Assembly: GCF_030684315.1 (NCBI RefSeq)
Contig: NC_081356.1
Location: 64,092,835-64,156,834 of the forward strand
Source of the DNA: Stegostoma tigrinum
Lineage: Eukaryota
Direction of reading: 5' to 3'
DNA length: 64,000 bases
Under the pieces are notes generated by a model. It was not told where the DNA came from and did not search any database. It worked only from the letters and a program-made list of their open reading frames with translations. Below, piece by piece: positions 13,951 through 56,174 of this stretch (position 1 is the stretch's first letter; each line of letters begins with the position of its first letter). The translations under genes were made by a program, and so were the position numbers.

Positions 13951-13977
13951 TTCAGAAAACACATGATTGTGGAATCG

Positions 13978-14176
13978 GATAGTAGGAACTGCAAATGCTG
14001 GAGAATCTGAGATAACAAGGCGTAGAGCTGGATGAACACCCTAGGCCAAGCAGCATCAGAGGAGTAGGAAAGCTGACATTTCGGGCCTGGACCCTTGTTC
14101 AGAATGGGCCTTCTTTGTGAAGAAGGGTCTAGGCCCGAAATGTCAGCCTTCCTACTCCTCTGATGCTGCTTGGCCC
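13978..14176. mobile_element. PLE-derived hairpin mini-element
   Basis: Inverted copies of the Neptune 3' end with the apex just upstream of the hammerhead-like core (gtgaagaagggtctaggcccgaaatgtc). Confidence 0.85.
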
Positions 14177-14449
14177 GATTGTAAAGGATTGGTAGTCTTA
14201 TTCCACAATCTTCTGGAAAATGGGTTTTTGGGTCCAGGGAACTTATCACAGTTTAGCCCTGTTTAATTTCCCCAGTAATGCTTTTACTTACTGATTTTCA
14301 GTCCCTCATTCCTATTAGGTTCTTGACTCTGGTATTCATGGGAAAGGTCCTTGTATCCTACTTCATGATGGCAGTCAGGCCTGTTCCTCAGTATAAGCTG
14401 CCTTGTTTCTGTCTGTAATGCACTTGCTTTTTCTTAAATAACTTTATCT

Positions 14450-16133
14450 AGAAAAGCTAAAAGGTCTAAAAATTGATAAATCTCCTGGCCCCGATGGGCT
14501 ACTACCTAGAGTTCTGAGGGAGGTGGCTGAGGAAATAGCGGAGGCTTTGGCTGTGATCTTCCAAAAGTCACTGGAGTCTGGGAAAGTCCCAGATGTTTGG
14601 AAAATTGCTGTTGTAACCCCCTTGTTTAAGAAAAGATCAAGGCAAAAGATGGAAAATTATAGGCCAATTAGCCTAACCTCGGTTGTTGGTAAAATTCTAG
14701 AATCCATTGTTAAGGACGAGATTTCTAAATTCCTGGAAGTGCAGTGTCAGATCAAAACAAGTCATCATGGGGTGGGGGGGGGTGCTGCTGCTGAGCAAGA
14801 TGAGGGCTCATGGTGTTCGAGGTGAGCTACTGGCTTCGATTGAGGATTGGCTGCCTGACAGAAGGCAGAGAGTTGGGATAAAAGGCTCTTTTTCAGAATG
14901 GTGACGAGTGGTGTCCTGCAGGGTTCAGTGTTGGGGCTGCTGCTGTTCACCTTTTTTATTAATGATCTGGATGAAGGGACTGGGGGCATTCTGGCGAAGT
15001 TTGCCGATGATACGAAGATAGGTGGACAGGCAGGTACTACTGAGGAGGTGGGAAGGCTGCAGAAAGATTTAGACAGTTTAGGAGAGTGGTCCAGGAAATG
15101 GCTGATGAAATTCAACGTGAGCAAATGCAAGGTTTTGCACTTTGGAAAAAAGAATACAGGCATGGACTATTTTCTACATGGTGAGAAAATTCATAAAGCA
15201 GAAGTGCAAAGGGATCCGGGAGTGTTGGTCCCGAATCTCTAAAAGTTAACTTGCAGGTAGAGTCCATGATTAAGAAAGCGAATATAATGTTGTTGTTTAA
15301 CTCGAGGGTTGGAACATAAAAGCAGTGATGTGCTTCTGAGACTTTATAAAGCTCTAGTTAGGCCCCATTTAGAATACTGTGAGATAATGGGAACTGCAGA
15401 TGCTGGAGAATTCCAAGATAATAAAATGTGAGGCTGGATGAACACAGCAGGCCAAGCAGCATCTCAGGAGCACAAAAGCTGACATTTTGGGCCTAGACCC
15501 TTGGGTCCGAAACGTCAGCTTTTGTGCTTCTGAGATGCTGCTTGGCCTGCTGTGTTCATCCAGCCTCACATTTTATTATTTAGAATACTGTGTCCTGTTT
15601 TGGGCCCTACATCTCAGGAAGGACATACTGGCCCTGGGGCGTGTCCAGCGGTGATTCACACGGATGATTCCTGGAGTGGTTGGTTTAACGTACGATGAAT
15701 GGCTAAGGATCCTGGGATTGTACTCATTAGAGTTTTTGGAAGGTTGAGGGGAGATCTAATAGAAACTTACAAGATAATGTATGGCTTAGAAAGTGTGGAT
15801 GTTGGGAAGTTGTTTCCGTTAGGTGGGAAGACTAGGACCCATGGGCACAGCCTTGCAATTAGAGGAGGTAAATTTAAAATGGAAATGAGGTGACATTTCT
15901 TCAGCCAGAGAGTGGTGGGCTTGTGGAATCCATTGCCATAGAGTGCAGTAGAGGCCGGGACGTTAGAAGCCTTTAAGGCAAAGATTGATAAATTCTTGAT
16001 CCCATAAGGAATCAAGGGCTATGGGGAGAGTGCAGGGAAGTGGAGTTGAAATGCCCATCAGCCATGATCTAAATGGCGGAGTGGACACGATGGGCCGAAT
16101 GGCCTTACTTCCACTCCTATGTTTTATGGTCTT
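14450..16133 (+). mobile_element. 5'-truncated CR1 LINE
   Basis: [47 protein letters not shown] and a CR1 3' tail. Confidence 0.95.
15382..15577. mobile_element. PLE-derived hairpin mini-element inserted in CR1
   Basis: About 80-bp inverted arms; 15-bp TSD atttagaatactgtg at 15367-15381 and 15578-15592. Confidence 0.92.
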
Positions 16134-16938: not shown

Positions 16939-17019
16939 CTTGTTCTTCTCACTATAACGACGGTTGAATTTTTGTATCATCACCATTTTTCTGCTGTATT
17001 CCCACATCCCTGGATTTCT

Positions 17020-17430
17020 ATGGCATCAAAAAAAATCGATTGATCTCGGCCTTTAATATGTTCACCAACTGAACATTCACAGGTTTGTAAGAGGTGGAAT
17101 TTGAAGCCCTCAAGCTTTTGTCAGAAAGTTTCCCCTCATCCTGGTCGGAAATGGTGAACCCCATGAACCAAATTCTGTGACCCTGATTTATGGACACTGC
17201 TGGCAGGAGCAATGTTCACTCAGCATGTCACTAACAAGCTCAATGTTTCACTGCAGTCATTCTTCATTCTTCTAAATTCCAGAAAGAATAGGACTATTTT
17301 CCTCAATCACATCTAATCCGACAACACTTCCACTTTGGAAATCAATCTTAATTGCCCGAAAAGGGAAGAAACTATGTCATTTCTTAGTTAGGAGACCAAA
17401 CCTCTGCAGAGCATTTCAGGAATGGTCTCA
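17020..17430 (-). mobile_element. Old CR1 3' fragment
   Basis: Degenerate KAEINRFL-type CR1 C-terminal region. Confidence 0.5.
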
Positions 17431-17732
17431 ACAAAACCGAGGTGTCCGTAGTCAAGAGTCTGCATCGAGATACAGATGCATGATGGCTATTGGATACTTG
17501 TGTTTGCTCACCCCAACTGAGAGAGAGCTAAAAAGCAGGTATCCTACAGATAGGCTTTCCAATTTCTTTTTGGCAAGAAAGCCAGACCAGCAAGGATCAA
17601 CACCTTTGGTCACAAAGCCCTCTGGGTGTACAGTGTGCGGATGATTGCAGGGTTGCTTTCCACTCTACACCAAATTTGCATGACACTTTCAAACTCTCCA
17701 CTTCTGTACACAACCAGACTTTGTATTCCATG

Positions 17733-17919
17733 GATAATAAAATGTGAGGCTGGATGAACACAGCAGGCCAAGCAGCATCTCAGGAGCACAAAAGCTGACG
17801 TTTCGGGCCTAGACCCTTCGTCAGCTTTTGTGCTCCTGAGATGCTGCTTGGCCTGCTGTGTTCATCCAGCCTCACATTTTATTATCTTGGAATCTCCAGC
17901 ATCTGCAGTTCCCATTATC
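17733..17919. mobile_element. PLE-derived hairpin mini-element
   Basis: Near-perfect inverted arms of about 65 bp; flanked by ctttgtattccatggat at 17719-17735 and 17919-17935. Confidence 0.92.
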
Positions 17920-17932
17920 TTTGTATTCCATG

Positions 17933-19370
17933 GATGTGAGTTTGCTCACTGAGCTGGAAGGTTCGTTTTCAGACGTTTCGTCACCGTTCTAGGTAACATC
18001 ATCAGTGAGCCTCTGACAAAGCGCTGGTGTTATGTCCCGCTTTCTATTTATCTGGTTAGGTTTCCTTGGGCTGGTGATGTCATTTTCTGCGTTGGTGATG
18101 TCATTTCCTGTTCTTTTTCTCAGAGGGTGGTAGATTGATTTGGAACCAATGTGTTTGTTGATGGAGTTCCGGTTGGATTGCCATGCTTCTAGGAATTCTT
18201 GTGCGTGTCTCTGTTTGGCTTGTCCTAGGATGGATGTGTTGTCCCAATCAAAGTGGTGTCCTTCCATATCTGTATGTAAGGATACGAGTGATAGTGGGTC
18301 ATGTCGTTTTGTGGCTAGTTGATGTTCATGTATCCTGGTGGCTAGCTTTCTGCCAGTTTGTCCAATGTAGTGTTTGTCACAGTTCTTGCAAGGTATTTTG
18401 TAGATGACGTTCGTTTTATTTGTTGTCTGTATAGGGTCTTCTAAGTTCATTAGCTGCTGTTTTAGCGTGTTGGTGGGTTTGTGGGCTACCCTGATGCCAA
18501 GAGGTCGGAGTAGTCTGGCAGTCATTTCGGAAATGTCTTTGATATAGGGGAGAGTGGTTATGGTTTCTGGGCCCGTTTTGTCTGTTTGTTTGGGTTTACT
18601 GCTGAGGAATCGGCAGACTGTGTTCATAGGGTACCTGTTCTTTTTGAATATGCTGTACAGGTGATTTTCCTCTGCTCTGCGTAGTTCCTCTGCTGCAGTG
18701 TGTGGTGGCTCGTTGGAATAATGTTCTAATGCAGCTTCGTTTGTGGGTGTTGGGTTGATTGCTCCTGTAGTTCAGTATTTGGTCCATATGTGTTGTTTTT
18801 CTGTAGACGCTGGTTTGAAGTCCCCCATTGGCTGTTCGCTCCACTGTGGCATCTAGGAATGGCAGTTTGTTGTTGTTTTCTTCCTCTTTTGTGAATGAGA
18901 ATGAATGGACAAACTGGCAGAAAGCTAGCCACCAGGATACATGAACATCAACTAGCCACAAAACGACATGATCCACTATCACTCGTATCCTTACATACAG
19001 ATATGGAAGGACACCACTTTGATTGGGACAACACATCCATCCTAGGACAAGCCAAACAGAGACACGCACAAGAATTCCTAGAAGCATGGCATTCCAACCG
19101 GAACGCCATCAACAAACACATTGATTTGGAACCAATCTAACATCCCCTGAGAAAAAGAACAGGAAATGACATCAACGCAGGAAATGACATCACCAACCTA
19201 AGGAAACCTAACCAGATAAACAGAAAGCAGGACATAACACCAGCGCTTCGTCGGAGGCTCACTGATGTTACCTAGAATGGTGACGAAACGTCTGAAAACG
19301 AACCTTCCAGCTCAGTGAGCAAACTCACATCCAGAACTTCAACCTGAACTACAAATCTTCTCAAAACTCG
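17933..19370. mobile_element. Penelope/Poseidon-type PLE with inverted structure (minus arm about 17933-18896, plus arm about 18906-19370)
   Basis: LPFLD, VYRKTTH, TLPYIKDISE, IYKIPC, YIGQTGRKLATRIHEH (GIY-YIG); the 3' ends of the two arms are inverted repeats. Confidence 0.93.
17969..18008 (-). ncRNA. Minimal type I hammerhead ribozyme motif (Poseidon-type PLE)
   Basis: tca-CUGAUGA-u-GUUACC(uagaac)GGUGAC-GAAAC-GUC-uga: conserved core, 6-bp stem II, 3-bp stem I. Confidence 0.8.
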
Positions 19371-19383
19371 TTTGTATTCCATG

Positions 19384-19446
19384 ATAACAAAGTATGGAGC
19401 TGGATGAACACGGCAGGCCATGCAACATCTAAGGAGCACAAAAGCT
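19384..19446 (-). mobile_element. Tiny Neptune 3'-end fragment
   Basis: gataacaaagtatggagctggatgaacac...ggagcacaaaagct between two copies of ttgtattccatg. Confidence 0.8.
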
Positions 19447-20879
19447 TGTACTTGTATTCCATGATATTGTGCAAACAGAACTGTTGTCAACAAAACCTGA
19501 TCAGTAAATAGTCCATCTCTCATTTTCCAAAACCGATAGATGTTGAAACAACAACTCAAAACAAAACTGTTGTAAAATCAACTACATTGCATTGATACTC
19601 TGTCCTGACGGCCAAAGAGCATCTTCCTTACCAGCGCCTGCTTTTTCTCCATTCCCAAATGGCTGAAGATCCAACCGAGAACAAAGGAAATGCTACAAAG
19701 TCTGATGCCTTTCTTGAAGTACTGTAGCACTGATGTTAATTACTAGGAGTGGCTTGCTAATGACTGTTCAAAATGGGGACAACTTGTTCATCAAGTTGTA
19801 TTGTGCTTAGAGTCTGAATATCTCAATGTTGAAGCAGAGAAGGAAAGCAAAGAAAGTGAACTCCATGTTCTGGATCTCACTGTCTTGTGGGACATCCTGT
19901 CCCATGTGCCTGTATATCTGTGGGGTGAGAATTGGCCTGTTCAGTGCATGAGGACCACAGTAGAAAATCCCTGATGTAAAATTTAATTGTGAAACCTGCA
20001 TTCAGGCCCAATCTAAAGGTTTGATAATACTCATTAGTTTTGAGGCCTATTCAAATATCCTTGCTCAAGTTCCAAAGTATGAATTACATTTATCAAAAAC
20101 ATTGATATTTCAAACAACAGACTCCACCACATTACAATAAAATACTGGCTGTCAACTTCCAGCTCCTTCATATATTGTGTTGATTTAACATTGTTCCTTT
20201 GTATTCTGTCTTTCTGAAGACTGTACAACTGTGACTGGTATTAACCCTCGCTGGCCACTGTCTGCTGTGCATGATCAGAAGCACCCTGAACACTAGTTGG
20301 CTTGTTAATGCATTTACAGTGAATGAATGATCATTAGTCAGTCTCATTTTGGTTAAAGAGTATGTTTCCATTTTTTTCATGATTGGTTTCTTTAAAAGTA
20401 ATAGAAAATTATGCCACGAAGAATACTGTCATTGGTTTCCCAAGATGTCCATTTTTCATGATGTCAAAATTATAATTTATTTTTGTAACTTCTCACTAAG
20501 TTAATAGGACATTTTACAATATCATCAGGATGGGAGGATATATTTGGTGATGCTCTTATGATATGTACTCCAAGATCATCATTTTCAGGTTGACTTGATT
20601 GGTGAGAGGATCTTATTAAATTGAACAGCTTATCAGTGGCCTTTCATTTTTATGAGGCCATCTGCTGGGGAGTATGTTTTTGAGTTGGTATTGGTAGTAG
20701 AAATAGTTACTTTGTTCCCAATAAATGGTAAGGTTGCAGACAACCTTAAAACAATCCTGAAGAAAAGACACGTTCTGTCAAAGCTTGTCATCTTGCATTC
20801 ATCAGGACAGTTCTTGAGAACCAGTGCAATGGGGAAAACCAGCACTTTGACAACATGAGAGGCATGTCAAGGCATTATT

Positions 20880-27055: not shown

Positions 27056-27331
27056 AAGTGAATCATTATTCATGTAATATCTGGAAAGTAGATATTGTGC
27101 TGATTTATGAAAATTAATCTTCAAAAAAGTTTAATGTTTTAATTTGTCCTTCTTACTCAGAGAGCACTTTGTACCCTTGTCCTCCATTTCAGATGTAATG
27201 TAACTGTTACAACATGGAGAGAGACAGGCAAACCAAAGCGGCCTTTCTACCTCTGTATTTGCAACACAGTAAAATTAAACCACTGAAGACTCTCATTACT
27301 TTGACCAGTGGCTCCTAACTAGACTGAAGTT

Positions 27332-27458
27332 TCTGAGAAAGGGTTACCAGACCCGAAACGTTAACTCTGTTTTTTCCTCCACAGATGCTACCAGACCTGC
27401 TGAGCTTTTCCAGCAACTTTTTGTTTTTGTTCCTGATTTACAGCATCCGCAGTTCTTT
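27332..27458 (+). mobile_element. PLE 3' end (second Neptune-like subfamily), starting at the ribozyme motif
   Basis: ctgagaaagggttaccagacccgaaacg...cagcatccgcagttc; homologous to 49060-49224 and 36030-36160. Confidence 0.7.
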
Positions 27459-36029: not shown

Positions 36030-36160
36030 AAACTGAAAAGAACTGTGGGTGCTGTAAATAAGAAACAAAGACAGAATTTGCTGGAAAAACTTAGCAGCCC
36101 TGGCAGCATCTGTGGAGAGAAATCAAAATTAATGTTAGAGTCCTGTGACTCTTTCTCAGA
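36030..36160 (-). mobile_element. PLE 3' end (second subfamily)
   Basis: Reverse complement of 27332-27458. Confidence 0.7.
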
Positions 36161-38009
36161 AAACATGCCTAATTAGGTTTTCATATTCTATGACTTTAAA
36201 GAAGTTACAAGGTTAGGCTCTTAACATCATTTGTGTTTCTATCCCTAGCCCTGTTTTACATGTGGATAGATGTATTTTTTTCAGAGTGAGAAGTTTTGAA
36301 TGTCTTTGTTGGAAATGTTTATATGTTGCAATAACGGTACTAATTTGACCACTTTTTTTTTTGCAAGTATTGACTAGTTTTAACTATGTAGACGTTTGAA
36401 ATTCCCTCGGTCGAGATTTGGCTGGAAGTGGAATTAACCTAGCTTCCTCCTTTATCCTTACATGAATATTCAGATGGGCCACCATATGGGCTAACTGAGA
36501 GCTGGCTGTTGGCATGATTTATTGAGATGTCCTTTCATTGTATGTTTAAATTAGAAGCTTTTTATAGTATGAATGCAATTTTTTAAAACTCAGATTTTGT
36601 GGGTGTAATAACAGTTAGACTATCAGCACTTACTGATATTTAGGAATAAACCAGGTAGCAGCTTCCAGCATCCACACCTGCAAGTAAATGCTGAAATCAG
36701 GAAATTGCTGTTAGGCTTGGCCATTTCCCCAGACTTTGCTACACTAGCACCTCCCTGAGAGAGTTTATGTACTCAAGTGTAAATATATTTTTTAATCCCA
36801 TGAGTTTGAATTACCAAACAATATCTGCGCTGAAATTTGAGTGGAACTTCATTCCTTCAAGTTTTAATTATGGAGATCTTATTTTGAAAATTGTCTCCTC
36901 TTCCTTTCCCTTAGTGTTAACCTCACTTATTTTGTTGCTTTGTTTTGCTTTTATTTCCAATGTACAGATGAGAATATTACAAACAATGTACCTTAAGCTC
37001 TAAATGTCTTGCAATGCAGTATTTTGTCATGTGTAGGTGATTAATTCAAAATTTGTGTTTATAGGTGATGTAGGAGGGCTAGTTTGGTGACTTATTAAAA
37101 CTCAGGAATTTCTCTGTGTAAGTGAATGAGCATAAATCAAGTATGACTTTAAATAGACAGAATATATTGTTACAAGACAAAATATGAAGACTTACAATTT
37201 TTAATTATATTTTACAGCCATACTAGGACATGTATTTTACAGCTAGCAAGTTGCTCGTTGCCTTGGTTTGTTGCCAGCTCCTACAAGATTTTACTGCCAG
37301 ATTGCTAGTTGACAGATTTGGTAGCGCAGCATGAAATATAATCACTCCACATGAATCTATGCTTCATTTCACTTCAAGGTCTGTTGTACGTATACTGCAA
37401 CAGACGTGTAATTGAAATAGCTGAACCACAAGGACATTAGTAATGCCACCATGTCATAGCAGCTGAGCATGCACAGTTATCTCCCATTAGTGCACGTGAA
37501 GTCTCATGGCACACATTTGCAGAAGTGTCACTGCTTGAGCTTACCCATCAGTGATTCTGGATTTGCTATCTATTTGTAAGTCAATGCAGACATAAATTAA
37601 TAATCACCTCTTTCCTCAAATAGGTTCATCTTATGATGGAAAGTTGAAAACTACATAAGAATGGATCACTGATTCAAGATACAGATATGTCATTCAGCAC
37701 TGCCACTTATATATTGTTTTCAATGGTTTGTGAAGCTGACCTTAAATCGGATTTTGCCATTTTAGAGGAAAGACTAAAATCTCTGAATGTTTTGGAGACG
37801 GAATGGTAAATTAAACATAAGTGATTGATTTGGAAAAAAGTCAGAGGGAAAAGCCACTCAAATTTCCCATTATTTGCCACAAACCTGCCTGGAGATGCAT
37901 TCAGTGCATGTAAGCATTCTTAATGAATCGGGCATGCTCCCGTTGCAGATCTACCACACACATTTCTGGAGTTGACTTACGGAAGAGAAATAAAGAATGT
38001 GAAATTTAA

Positions 38010-38668: not shown

Positions 38669-39232
38669 GGATAACAAGGTGTAGAGGTGGATGAACACAA
38701 CAGGTGAAGCACCATCAGAGGAGCAGGAAGGCTGGCATTTCGGGCCTAGACCCTTCAGAAATGGGAGAGGGGAAGGGGGTTCTGAAATAAATAGGGAGAG
38801 AGAGGGAGGCGGATAGAAGATGGATAGAGGTGAAGATAGGTGGAGTGGAATCAGACCGGTCAAAGGAGGCGGGGATGAAGCCAGTAAAGGTGAGTGTAGG
38901 TAGGGAGGAGATGTCAGTTCAGGGAGGATGGACAGGTCAAGGAGGTGGGATGAGTTAGAAGGTAGGAGATGGAGATGGGGCGTGAGTTGGGAGGAAGGAC
39001 AAGTTAGGGAGGCAGGGACGAGCTGGGCTGGTTTTGGGATGCGATAGGGGGAGGGGAGATTTTGAAGTTTGTGAAGTCCACATTGATACCATTGGGCTGC
39101 AGGGTTCCCAAGCGGAATATGAGTTGCTGTTCCTGCAACCTTCGAGTGGCATCGTTGTGGCACTGCACGAAGCCCAGGATGGACATGTCTGAGGAATGGG
39201 AAGGGGGTAGTTGAAATGGTTCGGAACTGGGA
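38669..39232 (-). mobile_element. Neptune-type PLE 3' fragment
   Basis: ATRRLQEQQLIFRLGTLQPNGINVDF and the same 3' UTR as the 39979-42232 copy. Confidence 0.92.
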
Positions 39233-39981
39233 ACCATTGTGAAATTTAAAATGAAATTTCACCCAGTCGTGGTTGGTCCTATTAAAATAGAATGTATTGT
39301 TGGGGCAGGAAGTGACTTGGGTGGTTGGAGTGAGATCTTTTTTTTTTCTCTTTGCCATGCTCTGTTCCTCAGGCTTCTTTTGATAAAGGGTAATGTCTGT
39401 AATATTGAATATTTGCCTCTTTCCACGGAGGCTGTGCCTAGTTTGTGGTACTAGCTTACCTCCACCTAATTTTCTTGTATAATTTGTATTTTCAAGAGTC
39501 CCCTGATCAATTTAAGGACCAATAACAAATATTAATCATCATTCAGAGTTAGGAAAAAAAGTAGAGTACTGTGCCAGTACACACTAACCTTCGAGCTCTG
39601 ATCATTAGTCAAAGGCTGACTTGGATCTCTCACCATGAGCATTGTTCATTAGACAGAAGAATACAACTGACTTGTACATAATTTTCAACAATTTGTAATA
39701 GCCTTTCATCAGAGTGGCTAATGCTACAACAATTAGGTGCTTAGATTTTTCTGTTGCTTAAAGGCTACGAATTTCATGGCAAGCCCCATAAGAGCAGTTT
39801 GTGTGAAAATAATTGTCAGTCTGCATGATATCTTTTGACATCCCATGCTTGTTTTTTCAGTTTCCCAATGCTCATCCTGTTTGCCTCTTTTATTCCTTGT
39901 TGATTTTTTTCTTTTCAGATCAATTATTTTTCCCTCAAGGAGTTTTCTCTCCTAACTTTACAAATAGGAACAGAGTGCGCA

Positions 39982-41883
39982 GTGGTAGTATGGCGTACTG
40001 ACCTCTACATCGCCGAGGCCAGACGCCAACTTTCCGACACCACCTCCTACCGCCTCCTCGATCATGACCCCACACCCGAGCACCAAACCATCATCTCCAA
40101 CACCATTCATGACCTCATCACCTCAGGGGACCTCCCACCCACAGCCTCCAACCTCATTGTTCCCCAATCCCGCACGGCCCGTTTCTATCTCCTTCCCAAA
40201 ATCCACCAACCTGCCTGCCCCGGTCGACCCATCGTCTCAGCCTGCTCCTGCCCCACCGAACTCATCTCCACCTATCTGGACTCCATTTTCTCCCCTTTGG
40301 TCCAGGAACTCCCCACCTATGTCCGTGACACCACCCACGCCCTCCACCTCCTCCAGGACTTCCAATTCCCTGGCCCCCAACACCTCATATTCACCATGGA
40401 CGTCCAGTCCCTGTACACCTGCATTCCGCATGGAGATGGCCTCAAGGCCCTCCGCTTCTTCCTGTCCCGCAGGCCCGACCAGGCCCCCTCCACCGACACT
40501 CTCATCCGCCTAGCGGAATTCGTCCTCACACTCAACAACTTCTCTTTTGACTCCTCCCACTTCCTACAGACTAAGGGGGTGGCCATGGGCACCCGCATGG
40601 GCCCCAGCTATGCCTGCCTCTTTGTAGGTTACGTGGAACAGTCCATCTTCCGCACCTACACAGGCCCCAAACCCCACCTCTTCCTCCGGTACATTGATGA
40701 CTGTATCGGCGCCGCCTCTTGCTCCCCAGAGGAGCTCGAACAGTTCATCCACTTCACCAACACCTTCCACCCCAACCTTCAGTTCACCTGGGCCATCTCC
40801 AGCACATCCCTCACCTTCCTGGACCCCTCAGTCTCCATCTCAGGCAACCAGCTTGTAACTGATGTCCATTTCAAGCCCACCGACTCCCACAGCTACCTAG
40901 AATACACCTCCTCCCACCCACCCTCCTGCAAAAATTCCATCCCCTATTCCCAATTCCTCCGCCTCCGCCGCATCTGCTCCCACGATAAGACATTCCACTC
41001 CCGCACATCCCAGATGTCCAAGTTCTTTAAGGACCGCAACTTTCCCCCCACGGTGATTGAGAACGCCCTTGACCGCGTCTCCCGCATCTCCCGCGACACA
41101 TCCCTCACACCCCGCCCCCGCCACAACCGCCCCAAGAGGATCCCCCTCGTTCTCACACACCACCCTACCAACCTCCGGATACAACGCATTATCCTCCGAC
41201 ACTTCCGCCATTTACAATCCGACCCCACCACCCAAGACATTTTTCCATCCCCTCCCCTGTCTGCTTTCCGGAGAGACCACTCTCTCCGTGACTCCCTTGT
41301 TCGCTCCACACTGCCCTCCAACCCCACCATACCCGGCACCTTCCCCTGCAACCGCAGGAAATGCTACACTTGTCTCCACACCTCCTCCCTCACCCCCATC
41401 CCAGGCCCCAAGATGACATTCCACATTAAGCAGAGGTTCACCTGCACATCTGCCAATGTGGTATACTGCATCCACTGTACCCGGTGCGGCTTCCTCTACA
41501 TTGGGGAAACCAAGCGGAGGCTTGGGGACCGCTTTGCAGAACACCTCCGCTCAGTTCGTAACAAACAACTGCACCTCCCAGTCGCAAACCATTTCCACTC
41601 CCCCTCCCATTCTCTTGATGACATGTCCATCATGGGCCTCCTGCACTGCCACAATGATGCCACCCGAAGGTTGCAGGAACAGCAACTTATATTCCGCCTG
41701 GGAACCCTGCAGCCATATGGTATCAATGTGGACTTCACCAGTTTCAAAATCTCCCCTTCCCCCACTGCATCCCTAAACCAGCCCAGTTCATCCCCTCCCC
41801 CCACTGCACCACACAACCAGCCCAGCTCTTCCCCCCCACCCACTGCATCCCAAAACCAGTCCAACCTGTCTCTGCCTCCCTAA
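39982..41883 (+). CDS. PLE polyprotein (RT + Cys linker + GIY-YIG endonuclease), N-terminally truncated
   Basis: FYLLPKIH, GRPIVS, MDVQSLYT, GVAMGTRMGPSYA, RYIDD, CNRRKCYTC, VVYCIHC..CGFLYIGETKR, LGTLQP.GIN; no true ATG start. Confidence 0.93.
   Translation: MVVWRTDLYIAEARRQLSDTTSYRLLDHDPTPEHQTIISNTIHDLITSGDLPPTASNLIVPQSRTARFYLLPKIHQPACPGRPIVSACSCPTELISTYLDSIFSPLVQELPTYVRDTTHALHLLQDFQFPGPQHLIFTMDVQSLYTCIPHGDGLKALRFFLSRRPDQAPSTDTLIRLAEFVLTLNNFSFDSSHFLQTKGVAMGTRMGPSYACLFVGYVEQSIFRTYTGPKPHLFLRYIDDCIGAASCSPEELEQFIHFTNTFHPNLQFTWAISSTSLTFLDPSVSISGNQLVTDVHFKPTDSHSYLEYTSSHPPSCKNSIPYSQFLRLRRICSHDKTFHSRTSQMSKFFKDRNFPPTVIENALDRVSRISRDTSLTPRPRHNRPKRIPLVLTHHPTNLRIQRIILRHFRHLQSDPTTQDIFPSPPLSAFRRDHSLRDSLVRSTLPSNPTIPGTFPCNRRKCYTCLHTSSLTPIPGPKMTFHIKQRFTCTSANVVYCIHCTRCGFLYIGETKRRLGDRFAEHLRSVRNKQLHLPVANHFHSPSHSLDDMSIMGLLHCHNDATRRLQEQQLIFRLGTLQPYGINVDFTSFKISPSPTASLNQPSSSPPPTAPHNQPSSSPPPTASQNQSNLSLPP
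41761..41868 (+). repeat. Three 39-bp tandem units (PTASxNQPSSSPP) at the PLE ORF C-terminus
   Basis: Repeated cccactgca...aaccag units. Confidence 0.85.
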
Positions 41884-42107
41884 CCGGTTCTTCCTCTCAC
41901 CCATCCCTTCCTCCCACCCCAAGCCGCACCCCCAGCTACCTACTAACCTCATCCCACCTCCTTGACCTGTCCGTCTTCCCTGGACTGACCTATCCCCTCC
42001 CTACCTCCCCACCTACACCCTCTCCACCTATCATCTTTACTCTCCATCTTCGGTCCGCCTCCCCCTCTCTCCCTATTTATTCCAGTTCCCTCCCCCCATC
42101 CCCCTCT

Positions 42108-42135
42108 CTGATGAAGGGTCTAGGCCCGAAACGTC
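42108..42135 (+). ncRNA. Minimal hammerhead ribozyme motif (Neptune-type PLE)
   Basis: CUGAUGA-a-GGGU(cuag)GCCC-GAAAC-GUC. Confidence 0.75.
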
Positions 42136-42239
42136 AGCTTTTGTGCTCCTGAGATGCTGCTTGGCCTGCTGTGTTCATCCAGCCCCACATTTTATTATCT
42201 TGGAATCTCCAGCATCTGCAGTTCCCATTATCACAGAAA

Positions 42240-50778: not shown

Positions 50779-52662
50779 GAGATAATGGGAACTGCAGATG
50801 CTGGAGAATCCAAGATACCAAAGTGTAGAGCTGGATGAACACAGCAGGCCAAGCAGCATCTGAGGAGCGCAAAAGCTGACGTTTCGGGCCTAGACCCTTC
50901 ATCAGAGAGGGGGAAGGGGAGAGGGTTCTGGAATAAATAGGGAGAGAGGGGGAGGTGGACCAAAGATGGATAGAGAAGATAGGTAGGGAGGGGATAGGTC
51001 AGTCCAGGGAAGATGGACAGGTCAAGGAGGTGGGATGAGGTTAGTAGGTAGGAAATGGAGGTGCAGCTTGAGGTGGGAAGAAGGGATGGGTGAGAGGAAG
51101 AACAGGTTAGGGAGGCAGAGACAGGCTGGGTTGGTTTTGGGATGCAGTGCGGGGGGAGCGGTTGAACTGGGTTAATTGTGTGATGCAGTGGGGGAGGGGA
51201 CGAACTGGGCTGGTTTAGGGATGCGGTGGGGGAAGGGGAGATTTTGAAGCTGGTGAATTCCACATTTATACCATTGGGCTGCAGGGTTCCCAAGCGGAAT
51301 ATGAGTTGCTGTTCCTGCAACCTTCAGGTGGCATCCTTGTGACACTGCAGGAGGCCCATGATGGACGTGTTGTCTAAAGAATGGGAGGGGGAGTTAAAAT
51401 GGTTCGCGACTGGGAGGTGCAGTTGTTTGTTACGAACCAAGCGGAGGTGTTCTGCAAGCGGTCCCCATGCCTCCGCTTGTTTTTCCCAATGTGGAGGAAG
51501 CCACACCAGCTACAGTGGATACAGTATATTACATTGGCAGATGTGCAGGTGAACCTCTGCTTAATATGGAAAGTCATCTTGGGGCCTGGGATAGGGGTGA
51601 GGGAGGAGGTGTGGGGACAAATGTAGCACTTCCTGCGGTTGCAGGGGAATGTGCCGGGTGTGGTGGGGTTGGAGGGGAGTGTGGAGCGAACAAGGGAGTC
51701 ACGGAGAGAGTGGTCTGTCCGGACGGCAGACCAGGGTGGGGATGGAAAAATGTCTTGGGTGGTGGGGTCGGATTGTAGATGGCGGAAGTGTCGGAGGATG
51801 ATGCGTTGTATCCGGAGTTTGGTGCGGTGGTGTGTGAGAACGAGGGGTATCCTCTTGGGGCGGTTGTGGCGGGGGCGGGGTGTGAGGGATGTGTTGTGGG
51901 AAATGCGGGAGACGCGGTCAAGGGCGTTCTCGACCACTGCGGGGGGAAATTGTGGGGTGGTTGAGAACGCCCTTGACCGCGTCTCCTGCATTCCCTTCCT
52001 CTATATTGGGGAAACCAGGTGGAGGCTTGGGGACCGCTTTGCAGAACATCTCCGCTCGGTTCGCGATAAACAACTGCACTTCCCAGTCACGAACCATTTT
52101 AACTCCCCCTCCCATTCTTTAGATGACATGTCCATCATGTGCCACCTGCAGTGCCACAAGGATGCCACCCGAAGATTGCAGGAACAGCAACTCATGTTCC
52201 GCTTGGGAACCCTGCAGCCCAATGGCATCAATGTGGACTTCACCAGCTTCAAAATCTCCCCTTCCCCCATTGCATCCCAAAACCAGCCCAGTTCGTCCCC
52301 TCCCCCCACTGCATCCCAAAACCAACCCAGCCTGTCTCTGCCTCCTAACCTGTTCTTCCTCTCACCCATCCCTTCCTCCCACCCCAAGCTGCACCTCCAT
52401 TTCCTACGTACTAACCTCATCCCCCCACCTTGTCCTGTCCATCTTCCCTGGACTGACCTATCCCCTCCCCACCTATACTCTCCTCTCCACCTATCTTCTT
52501 TTCTTGCCATCTTCGGTCCGCCACCCCCCCCTCCCTATTTATTCCAGAACCCTCTCCCCATCCCCCTCACTGATGAAGGGTCTAGGCCCAAAACATCAGC
52601 TTTTCTGCTCCTGAGATGCTGCTTGGCCTGCTGTGTTCATCCAGCTTCACACTTTAGCATCT
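50779..52662. mobile_element. Neptune-type PLE with large inverted structure (minus arm 50779 to about 51948, plus arm about 51955-52662)
   Basis: Both arms closely match 41040-42232; the plus arm has an internal deletion of about 400 bp. Confidence 0.93.
50878..50905 (-). ncRNA. Minimal hammerhead ribozyme motif
   Basis: Reverse complement is ctgatgaagggtctaggcccgaaacgtc, identical to 42108-42135. Confidence 0.75.
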
Positions 52663-52929
52663 TAGGAGCACAGCCTTTGCTTCCAACTTCTCCTCCAAGT
52701 CTCATTTTTTGAGAGTTGACACACATTACCAATCCTGCACTCCTGCTATAATTGTCAAATGAACATCTCTACTGCAATACTATTTGTACAGGAACAACAA
52801 TATTTGATTTCTGAAGGCAGCTAACTTTGGATATACAGGTAACCTTTCTAAGGTTACCTAAAGCTTGGACAAAAAAAATTCTGAAGCTTTTCTCAAAAAA
52901 AAAGGTGAAACCTTATTCTTGGTGGTGGT

Positions 52930-55940: not shown

Positions 55941-55970
55941 GCTTTAGTTATCCATTATGTAATCCATTCT

Positions 55971-56104
55971 TCAGAAATGGGGGAGGGGGAAGGGGATTTT
56001 GAGCTAAATAGGGAGATGGGGGAGGCGGATGCTTGGCCTGCTGTGTTCATCCAGCTTCACACTGTTATCTCAGATTATCCAGCATCTGCAGTTCCTACTA
56101 TCTC
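55971..56104. mobile_element. Short inverted Neptune-derived insertion
   Basis: 13-bp TSD tgtaatccattct at 55958-55970 and 56105-56117. Confidence 0.85.
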
Positions 56105-56174
56105 TGTAATCCATTCTGTTTGAAATAAAAGCCACCATTCTATTTGCCTCTCCTATTACTTGCTAAACATATAA

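Follow-up and report, generated by a model that had tools for sequence, protein, structure and literature searches.

Within the 64-kb window, the whole stretch of Stegostoma tigrinum DNA that we analyzed (64,000 nucleotides), a host sequence of 12-13 bp occurs at each boundary of an array of three insertions of Penelope-like elements (PLEs), and repeated PLE insertion at a single site is supported. The account we favor, to which we assign a probability of roughly 60%, is that three insertions entered one loosely preferred site in succession, each of them regenerating the site as a target duplication (TSD). The preference in question would be a bias and not a specificity of the R2 kind.

An exact search of the window returned the 12-mer TTGTATTCCATG at 17721, 17921, 19372 and 19452, the four positions that the initial annotation had given, and at no other place in the 64 kb. 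When up to one mismatch was tolerated the window held five matches where 0.67 were expected, and none of 100 shuffles of the window reached that number. The inserts that the copies flank are a hairpin of Neptune type (E1), a Poseidon-type element with two arms (E2) and a Neptune-type arm of 63 nt (E3), the bracketing likewise being as first described (Table 1). The maximal exact direct repeat is 17 nt long around E1 (17719-17735 / 17919-17935), 13 nt around E2 (TTTGTATTCCATG; 17920-17932 / 19371-19383) and 15 nt around E3 (19372-19386 / 19452-19466). The core common to these repeats is 13 bp in copies 1-3 and 12 bp in copy 4, where the first position is C, and the repeat letters beyond it are microhomologies with the element ends.

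Table 1. Target copies, inserts and related PLE features of the window
Feature	Position	Strand	Basis or remark
Target copy 1, TTTGTATTCCATG	17720..17732	+	sole copy still on the original left flank
E1, Neptune-type pLTR mini-element	17733..17919	.	complementary arms, pLTR identity to the 42.2-kb RT-EN element
Target copy 2	17920..17932	+	maximal direct repeats
E2, 5'-truncated, frameshifted Poseidon-type PLE	17933..19370	.	ORFs, Pfam GIY-YIG, arm alignment, hammerhead-like core
Target copy 3	19371..19383	+	maximal direct repeats
E3, 63-nt tail-less Neptune-type pLTR arm with 5-nt filler	19384..19451	-	pLTR matches
Target copy 4, 12 bp	19452..19463	+	joined to the original right flank
Independent Neptune-type hairpin	15367..15592	-	15-bp TSD (15367-15381 / 15578-15592), GTATTC on the minus strand
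Reference element for E1 and E3	39904..42232	+	659-aa frame: RT, C-x4-CxxC linker and GIY-YIG; same pLTR and tail
Independent Neptune-type mini-insertion	55958..56117	+	TSD TGTAATCCATTCT (55958-55970 / 56105-56117)

Anatomy and lineage of the inserts

Insertions of EN+ PLEs are described as having an inverted, 5'-truncated arm, a tail of 30-40 bp at one end and a short TSD (PMC8557442, PMC3846280). E1 and E2 have the same build as these canonical elements (Penelope/Poseidon, Neptune), with head-to-head arms, a one-sided tail of 34 and 39 nt, respectively, and TSDs of 13-17 bp. In E1 an inverted, tail-less arm on the minus strand (17733-17819) meets a sense arm (17820-17886) that runs on into the 34-nt tail to about 17920; compared over 17733-17800 and 17819-17886, the two arms are complementary at 68 of 68 positions, and the tail is found on the right arm only. 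In E2 the 973-nt arm on the minus strand (17933-18905) carries the RT end, GIY-YIG and a pLTR without tail; on the plus strand, an arm of some 465 nt (18906-19370) carries the EN end, a pLTR and the 39-nt tail. The two arms of E2 align over about 430 nt at 94%. E3 shows only the tail-less arm of the canonical anatomy (19384-19446), with the 5-nt filler (19447-19451) between it and copy 4. All three inserts share one polarity, the tail-less end lying to the left and, in E1 and E2, the tail to the right, and each insert taken singly is an ordinary PLE insertion. The filler and the common polarity are additional to what the initial annotation had described.

Hammerhead-like cores of the form CTGANGA...GAAAC with a stem, putative ribozymes, are found in both families; Rfam gave no match in the window at gathering score. 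The inversion junction of E1 (17815-17826) recreates such a core on the minus strand and lies no more than 3 nt from the presumed hammerhead cleavage site, and the hairpins at 15.5 kb and 48.1 kb turn elsewhere. The 7-mer ATTATCT ends both Neptune RT start points, that of the short end (17881-17887) and that of the tail end (17914-17920). The two arms of E2 are set apart by a micro-inversion between 4-bp inverted ends (18134-18150), which accounts for 5 of 25 differing columns. Scans with pLTR patterns gave no match in viral contigs, metagenome contigs or prokaryote genomes.

E1 and E3 are non-coding and were assigned to the EN+ PLEs through pLTR identity. When E1 is compared with the pLTR that belongs to the 42.2-kb RT-EN element, one position in 100 differs (98-99% identity), and the 63 nt of E3 are 76-88% identical to the 11 other pLTR matches in the window, with 84-88% to the closer copies. 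The 659-aa frame of the reference element (39904-41883) matched RVT_1 (E=3.4e-5) and GIY-YIG (E=0.0022), and E2 matched the Pfam GIY-YIG family (E=0.0023), in each case below the curated Pfam cut-off; a CxxC inside GIY-YIG and two downstream histidines, as in the CCHH motif of the C-terminal GIY-YIG endonuclease that characterizes EN+ PLEs, could be read in both translations. A C-X2-5-CxxC motif within the RT-EN linker is reported to mark Neptune and Nematis (PMC8557442), and the linker of the reference element fits a Neptune-type origin of E1 and E3. The 260-aa frame of E2 (17989-18771) has a linker without cysteine, and GIY-YIG without the linker motif fits the Penelope/Poseidon type. The clade names used here are those to which the linker motif points. 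The claim in the initial annotation that two clades took part agrees with this diagnostic motif, except that a Nematis assignment of E1 and E3 would be compatible with it as well.

The endonucleases of the two types are 39% identical over 69 aa, a distance that speaks against the idea that one enzyme, for example an abundant Neptune protein, mobilized both RNAs and thereby imposed a single targeting preference. Stagger, register and polarity are identical for both families, as one enzyme would have it, and PLE proteins are reported to be able to act in trans on sequence flanked by pLTRs (PMC3846280). However, the ends of E2 coincide exactly with the two ends proper to Poseidon, the 39-nt tail is its own, and a blastn comparison of E2 with the Neptune pLTRs in the window gave no match. 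We regard mobilization by one enzyme as unlikely; if a cis preference is assumed, each family likely used its own protein.

Chance, site bias and other Neptune targets

It might be argued that the array is a coincidence in a PLE-dense genome, produced by generic A/T-rich nicking and picked out by a large scan, or, in a weaker form, that Neptune has a bias and Poseidon landed by chance. There are about 13 Neptune-like pLTR loci in the 64 kb, the majority flanks of the families are A/T-rich, and AT-rich DNA and ATT have been reported to be preferred in vitro (PMC11167929). Under uniform insertion, however, the probability that a Poseidon copy has two Neptune neighbors in the same polarity and within +-1 of the register is 2.8e-7 per Poseidon copy, and 3e-8 if the register is exact. 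Short of a scan that took in such elements by the million, these values call for a process that is not uniform. Pure chance would also leave unexplained the match to the Neptune junction and the TSD at 56 kb, both considered below, and we judge coincidence to be about as unlikely as a single enzyme.

Eleven other pLTR-bearing regions, some of them two ends of one structure, were examined for their targets, and a TSD was found in 3 of the 11. The TSD of the mini-insertion at 56 kb, TGTAATCCATTCT, agrees with the motif at 9 of 12 positions (P=0.005), that of the 15-kb hairpin at 7 of 12 (P=0.12), and a decayed TSD at 48 kb at 4 of 12 (P=0.95). Combined by Fisher's method the three give P=0.021, a value to be read with one of the three significant by itself and with a motif that was defined post hoc. 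E2 fixes the position of the top-strand nick at 10 nt after the G of GTAWTC, and E1 and E3 are compatible with that position; the 15-kb and 56-kb sites, by reading, also allow a top-strand junction at that distance.

Copy 4 together with the bases that follow it reads ATTCCATGATA, and matches the reverse complement of the Neptune arm/tail junction, ATTCCAAGATA, at 10 of 11 positions, a level reached by only 2 of 110,626 masked positions. The three targets elsewhere in the window reach 8-10 of 18 on the junction-mimic score, where the background mode is 6-7; when the left and right parts were scored together, the value of 14/18, which 13 of 110,410 positions attain, was no improvement on the right part by itself. 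The junction match fits either nicking of pLTR-like sites or pairing of the top-strand overhang with the RNA in the manner of L1 twin priming (PMC2912911). E1, however, adjoins copy 1, the poorest of the junction mimics, so mimicry alone is insufficient, and the left flank or the motif itself is implicated. For Poseidon the microhomology at the short end amounts to 2 nt only (TG), and no significant similarity emerged when the TSDs were compared with just the final 13 nt of one or the other tail (7/13, P=0.08; 17-kb and 15-kb sites). Tail-like majority letters beside the short ends could alternatively be ragged RT starts. We also considered the motif as the remnant of an earlier micro-insertion with a decayed 20-bp repeat and rejected this, the alignment needing four gaps and 78 of 5000 random sites doing equally well.

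Taken with the Poseidon datum as a single site within the window, these data give some support to a loose target bias on the Neptune side only; a targeting shared by the two clades is plausible, on one Poseidon event. The proposal in the initial annotation that two endonucleases are directed by sequence is supported as far as a loose Neptune bias is concerned, which is seen in one of the three other TSDs, and does not extend to the families at large, whose flanks are without the motif (see below).

Other PLE structures were noted in the window. An older Neptune-type insert (13965-14212) is flanked by an inverted, not a direct, 11-bp repeat (GATTGTGGAAT / ATTCCACAATC), and the 15.4-kb Neptune hairpin splits a region of LINE-like RT remnants (RVT_1 matches at 14442-15239). 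Large head-to-head Neptune structures are located at 38670-42232 and 50780-52663, with arms about 69-85% and 83% alike, respectively; by eye neither has a TSD, and they are possibly abutting independent inserts of different subfamilies. A more distant pLTR-like family is present in two copies that are 80% alike (27330-27458 and 36037-36162).

Order of insertion, origin of the motif and a proposed mechanism

Decay increases from left to right through the array, from E1 to E2 to E3. E1 has no arm differences in 68 positions and no private changes; between the arms of E2, 434 columns hold 14 substitutions, of which 4 are CpG transitions, as well as two indels of 3 nt and the micro-inversion, a divergence of about 3%; and E3 has 5 private changes in 64. 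At 17986, 18014 and 18018 most of the family depth carries the right-arm letter, and the left arm of E2 is therefore the derived one at these positions. Given this rising decay the insertions were likely sequential, and the likely order is E3 (oldest), E2 and E1 (youngest), each at the leftmost copy. The corresponding age intervals overlap (0-5% for E1, 2-6% for E2 and 3-17% for E3), two successive leftmost choices have a probability of 1/6 by chance, and the changes in E3 could alternatively come from a decayed template.

The overlap in age would also be found had there been a single burst at a persistent break, in which several RNAs went through repeated cycles of nicking, priming and fill-in within one germ line and the age gradient came from decayed templates. 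Motif copies 1-3 are identical, the polarity is the same throughout and no intermediate has been seen, all of which such a burst would accommodate. We nevertheless hold it to be quite unlikely, given the substitutions, indels and micro-inversion that separate the arms of E2 when those of E1 are identical, and given that three duplications require three rounds of fill-in.

The question of whether the motif is host sequence was approached with contigs from 4 of the 16 listed sequencing runs, compared with 16950-18060 only. In the window's species two samples provided 565 and 550 contigs with loose ends after 17920, and 257 and 254 with loose ends before 17931. Beyond the element ends a few read-on or tail-like bases are followed by A/T, with a majority agreement of only about 0.4, and the motif is not visible in the majority flanks (250-900 contigs per element end); it thus belongs to neither family's own sequence, and a strict target is absent from both. 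Each of the two samples of the window's species contains a contig that is identical from 16950 to 17754, through the flank, the motif and the first 22 nt of E1; these 22 nt are below the 31-letter bridging threshold, and the two samples belong to one study, of which one may be the window's own source. Among the contig pieces listed, none bridges E1 and E2.

The contigs of a related organism, from two studies, differ at 45 letters over about 760 nt. Their match ends at 17712, which is 8 nt short of the motif, and beyond it they continue for 1381 and 296 letters; the combination of motif and E1 is not carried by this organism at that position. The identical stop of the match in both studies may be due to an indel or to a separate insertion. 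T at 17780 and C at 17789 are common to E1 and E3 and are the majority letters in the window's species, and in the related organism 94-97% of the depth carries another letter at these positions, which, depth being distinct from copy number, hints that the E1/E3 subfamily expanded after the split from the related organism. Joints between a Neptune tail and a Neptune short end were found in the window's species in at least 18 'goes back' and at least 40 'opposite strands' contigs for X10, and in at least 18 and at least 38 for X11, and among the contigs counted in the two runs of the related organism there were none; we draw no argument from these joints.

With the related organism's contigs stopping short of the motif, a single ancestral copy is unseen, and the motif copies might be older than the inserts, as a short tandem, or might have traveled with them in a pre-assembled compound unit. 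This we consider highly improbable, given that the window has no other exact copy, that other family copies stop where these do but have different flanks, and that every insert has canonical ends with a repeat of its own on either side. The last two of these observations, together with the unequal decay of the inserts, support the original suggestion that each insertion regenerated the target as a TSD that was then used again. A strict R2-like specificity for TTGTATTCCATG is scarcely credible in spite of the four identical copies here and of the rDNA-targeting PLEs reported from spike mosses (PMC8557442), as the three other TSDs differ (9/12, 7/12 and 4/12), the majority flanks lack the motif, and most copies accordingly do not sit at one target sequence.

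For the reading we prefer, in which a single, loosely preferred site took up three insertions in turn, the following course may be proposed. A nick in the bottom strand at the left edge of TTTGTA would prime cDNA synthesis from the tail end of the element RNA, and a nick in the top strand about 10 nt after the G of GTATTC would prime a second cDNA at the tail-less end, in a manner resembling twin priming; in the case of Neptune, the overhang may aid this second priming by pairing with the bases at which the tail begins. Filling in the 13-bp stagger would then give rise to the target duplication and regenerate the site. Nothing of the left flank would be lost from the leftmost copy, which would also retain the first downstream bases, since the arms begin with GAT or ATA; it would therefore stay the best replica of the original target and be cut again.

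Neptune and Poseidon might furthermore have in common the signature GTAWTC, a top-strand nick about 10 nt downstream of it and the 13-bp stagger, with the overhang priming the inverted arm at the start of the RNA tail. We put this forward tentatively, as a possibility with the odds against it. If true, it would explain why the inverted arm has no tail, and hot spots of PLEs would be polarized arrays, ordered by age and extended from one end, in which one wave of PLEs after another is recorded.

Relation to known systems and significance

Tandems of canonical EN+ PLEs, as far as the accessible portions of PMC8557442 and PMC3846280 describe them, are partial and of one family, whereas here three TSD-bounded inserts of two lineages share one target. 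In PLEs both strands are reported to be nicked and extended, with RT starting at two internal sites, and for Anolis Poseidon in vitro, where both strands were likewise nicked and extended, the two start sites delimit the tail; nicking in the element's own pLTR or in AT-rich DNA was proposed for Poseidon, including for the formation of tandems (PMC11167929). While the accessible part of that report finds no homology between RT start and cleaved DNA, the Neptune junction in the present array is matched at 10 of 11 positions. L1 twin priming likewise gives an inverted arm from the second strand, with microhomology at the junction (PMC2912911). The PLE case differs in its endonuclease, a GIY-YIG and not an APE enzyme, and in the two fixed internal sites from which the arms begin.

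Tandem Alu insertions at L1 endonuclease sites regenerated by TSDs were reportedly described by El-Sawy and Deininger in 2005. There, too, a preferred nick site is restored by the TSD and then serves anew, but one enzyme (L1 ORF2p) serves all inserts, whereas here there were likely two endonucleases, about 39% identical in their core. PLEs are credited with moderate target preferences, Naiad, Chlamys and Neptune being biased to microsatellites and PLE-X targeting 28S (PMC8557442); bias as such is common to those elements and to the present case, but the target here is non-repetitive host sequence and the bias is loose. In the literature surveyed (titles and the starts of abstracts, mostly of papers outside subscription) we found no cross-clade re-use of a non-repetitive site by PLEs, and the array hints at a shared, loose target preference not previously known for these elements.

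How PLEs choose their targets and how the inverted, tailed inserts are built are described as still open (PMC8557442, PMC11167929), and a site cut three times in one register provides a defined substrate and defined nick positions for the existing in vitro assay. Parallel insertion is assumed not to affect presence/absence markers based on PLEs, and such arrays would invalidate that assumption. PLE targeting would be more conserved than has been assumed if the bias is common to two distant endonucleases; if Poseidon landed here by chance, the array is a rare curiosity of a genome dense with PLEs.
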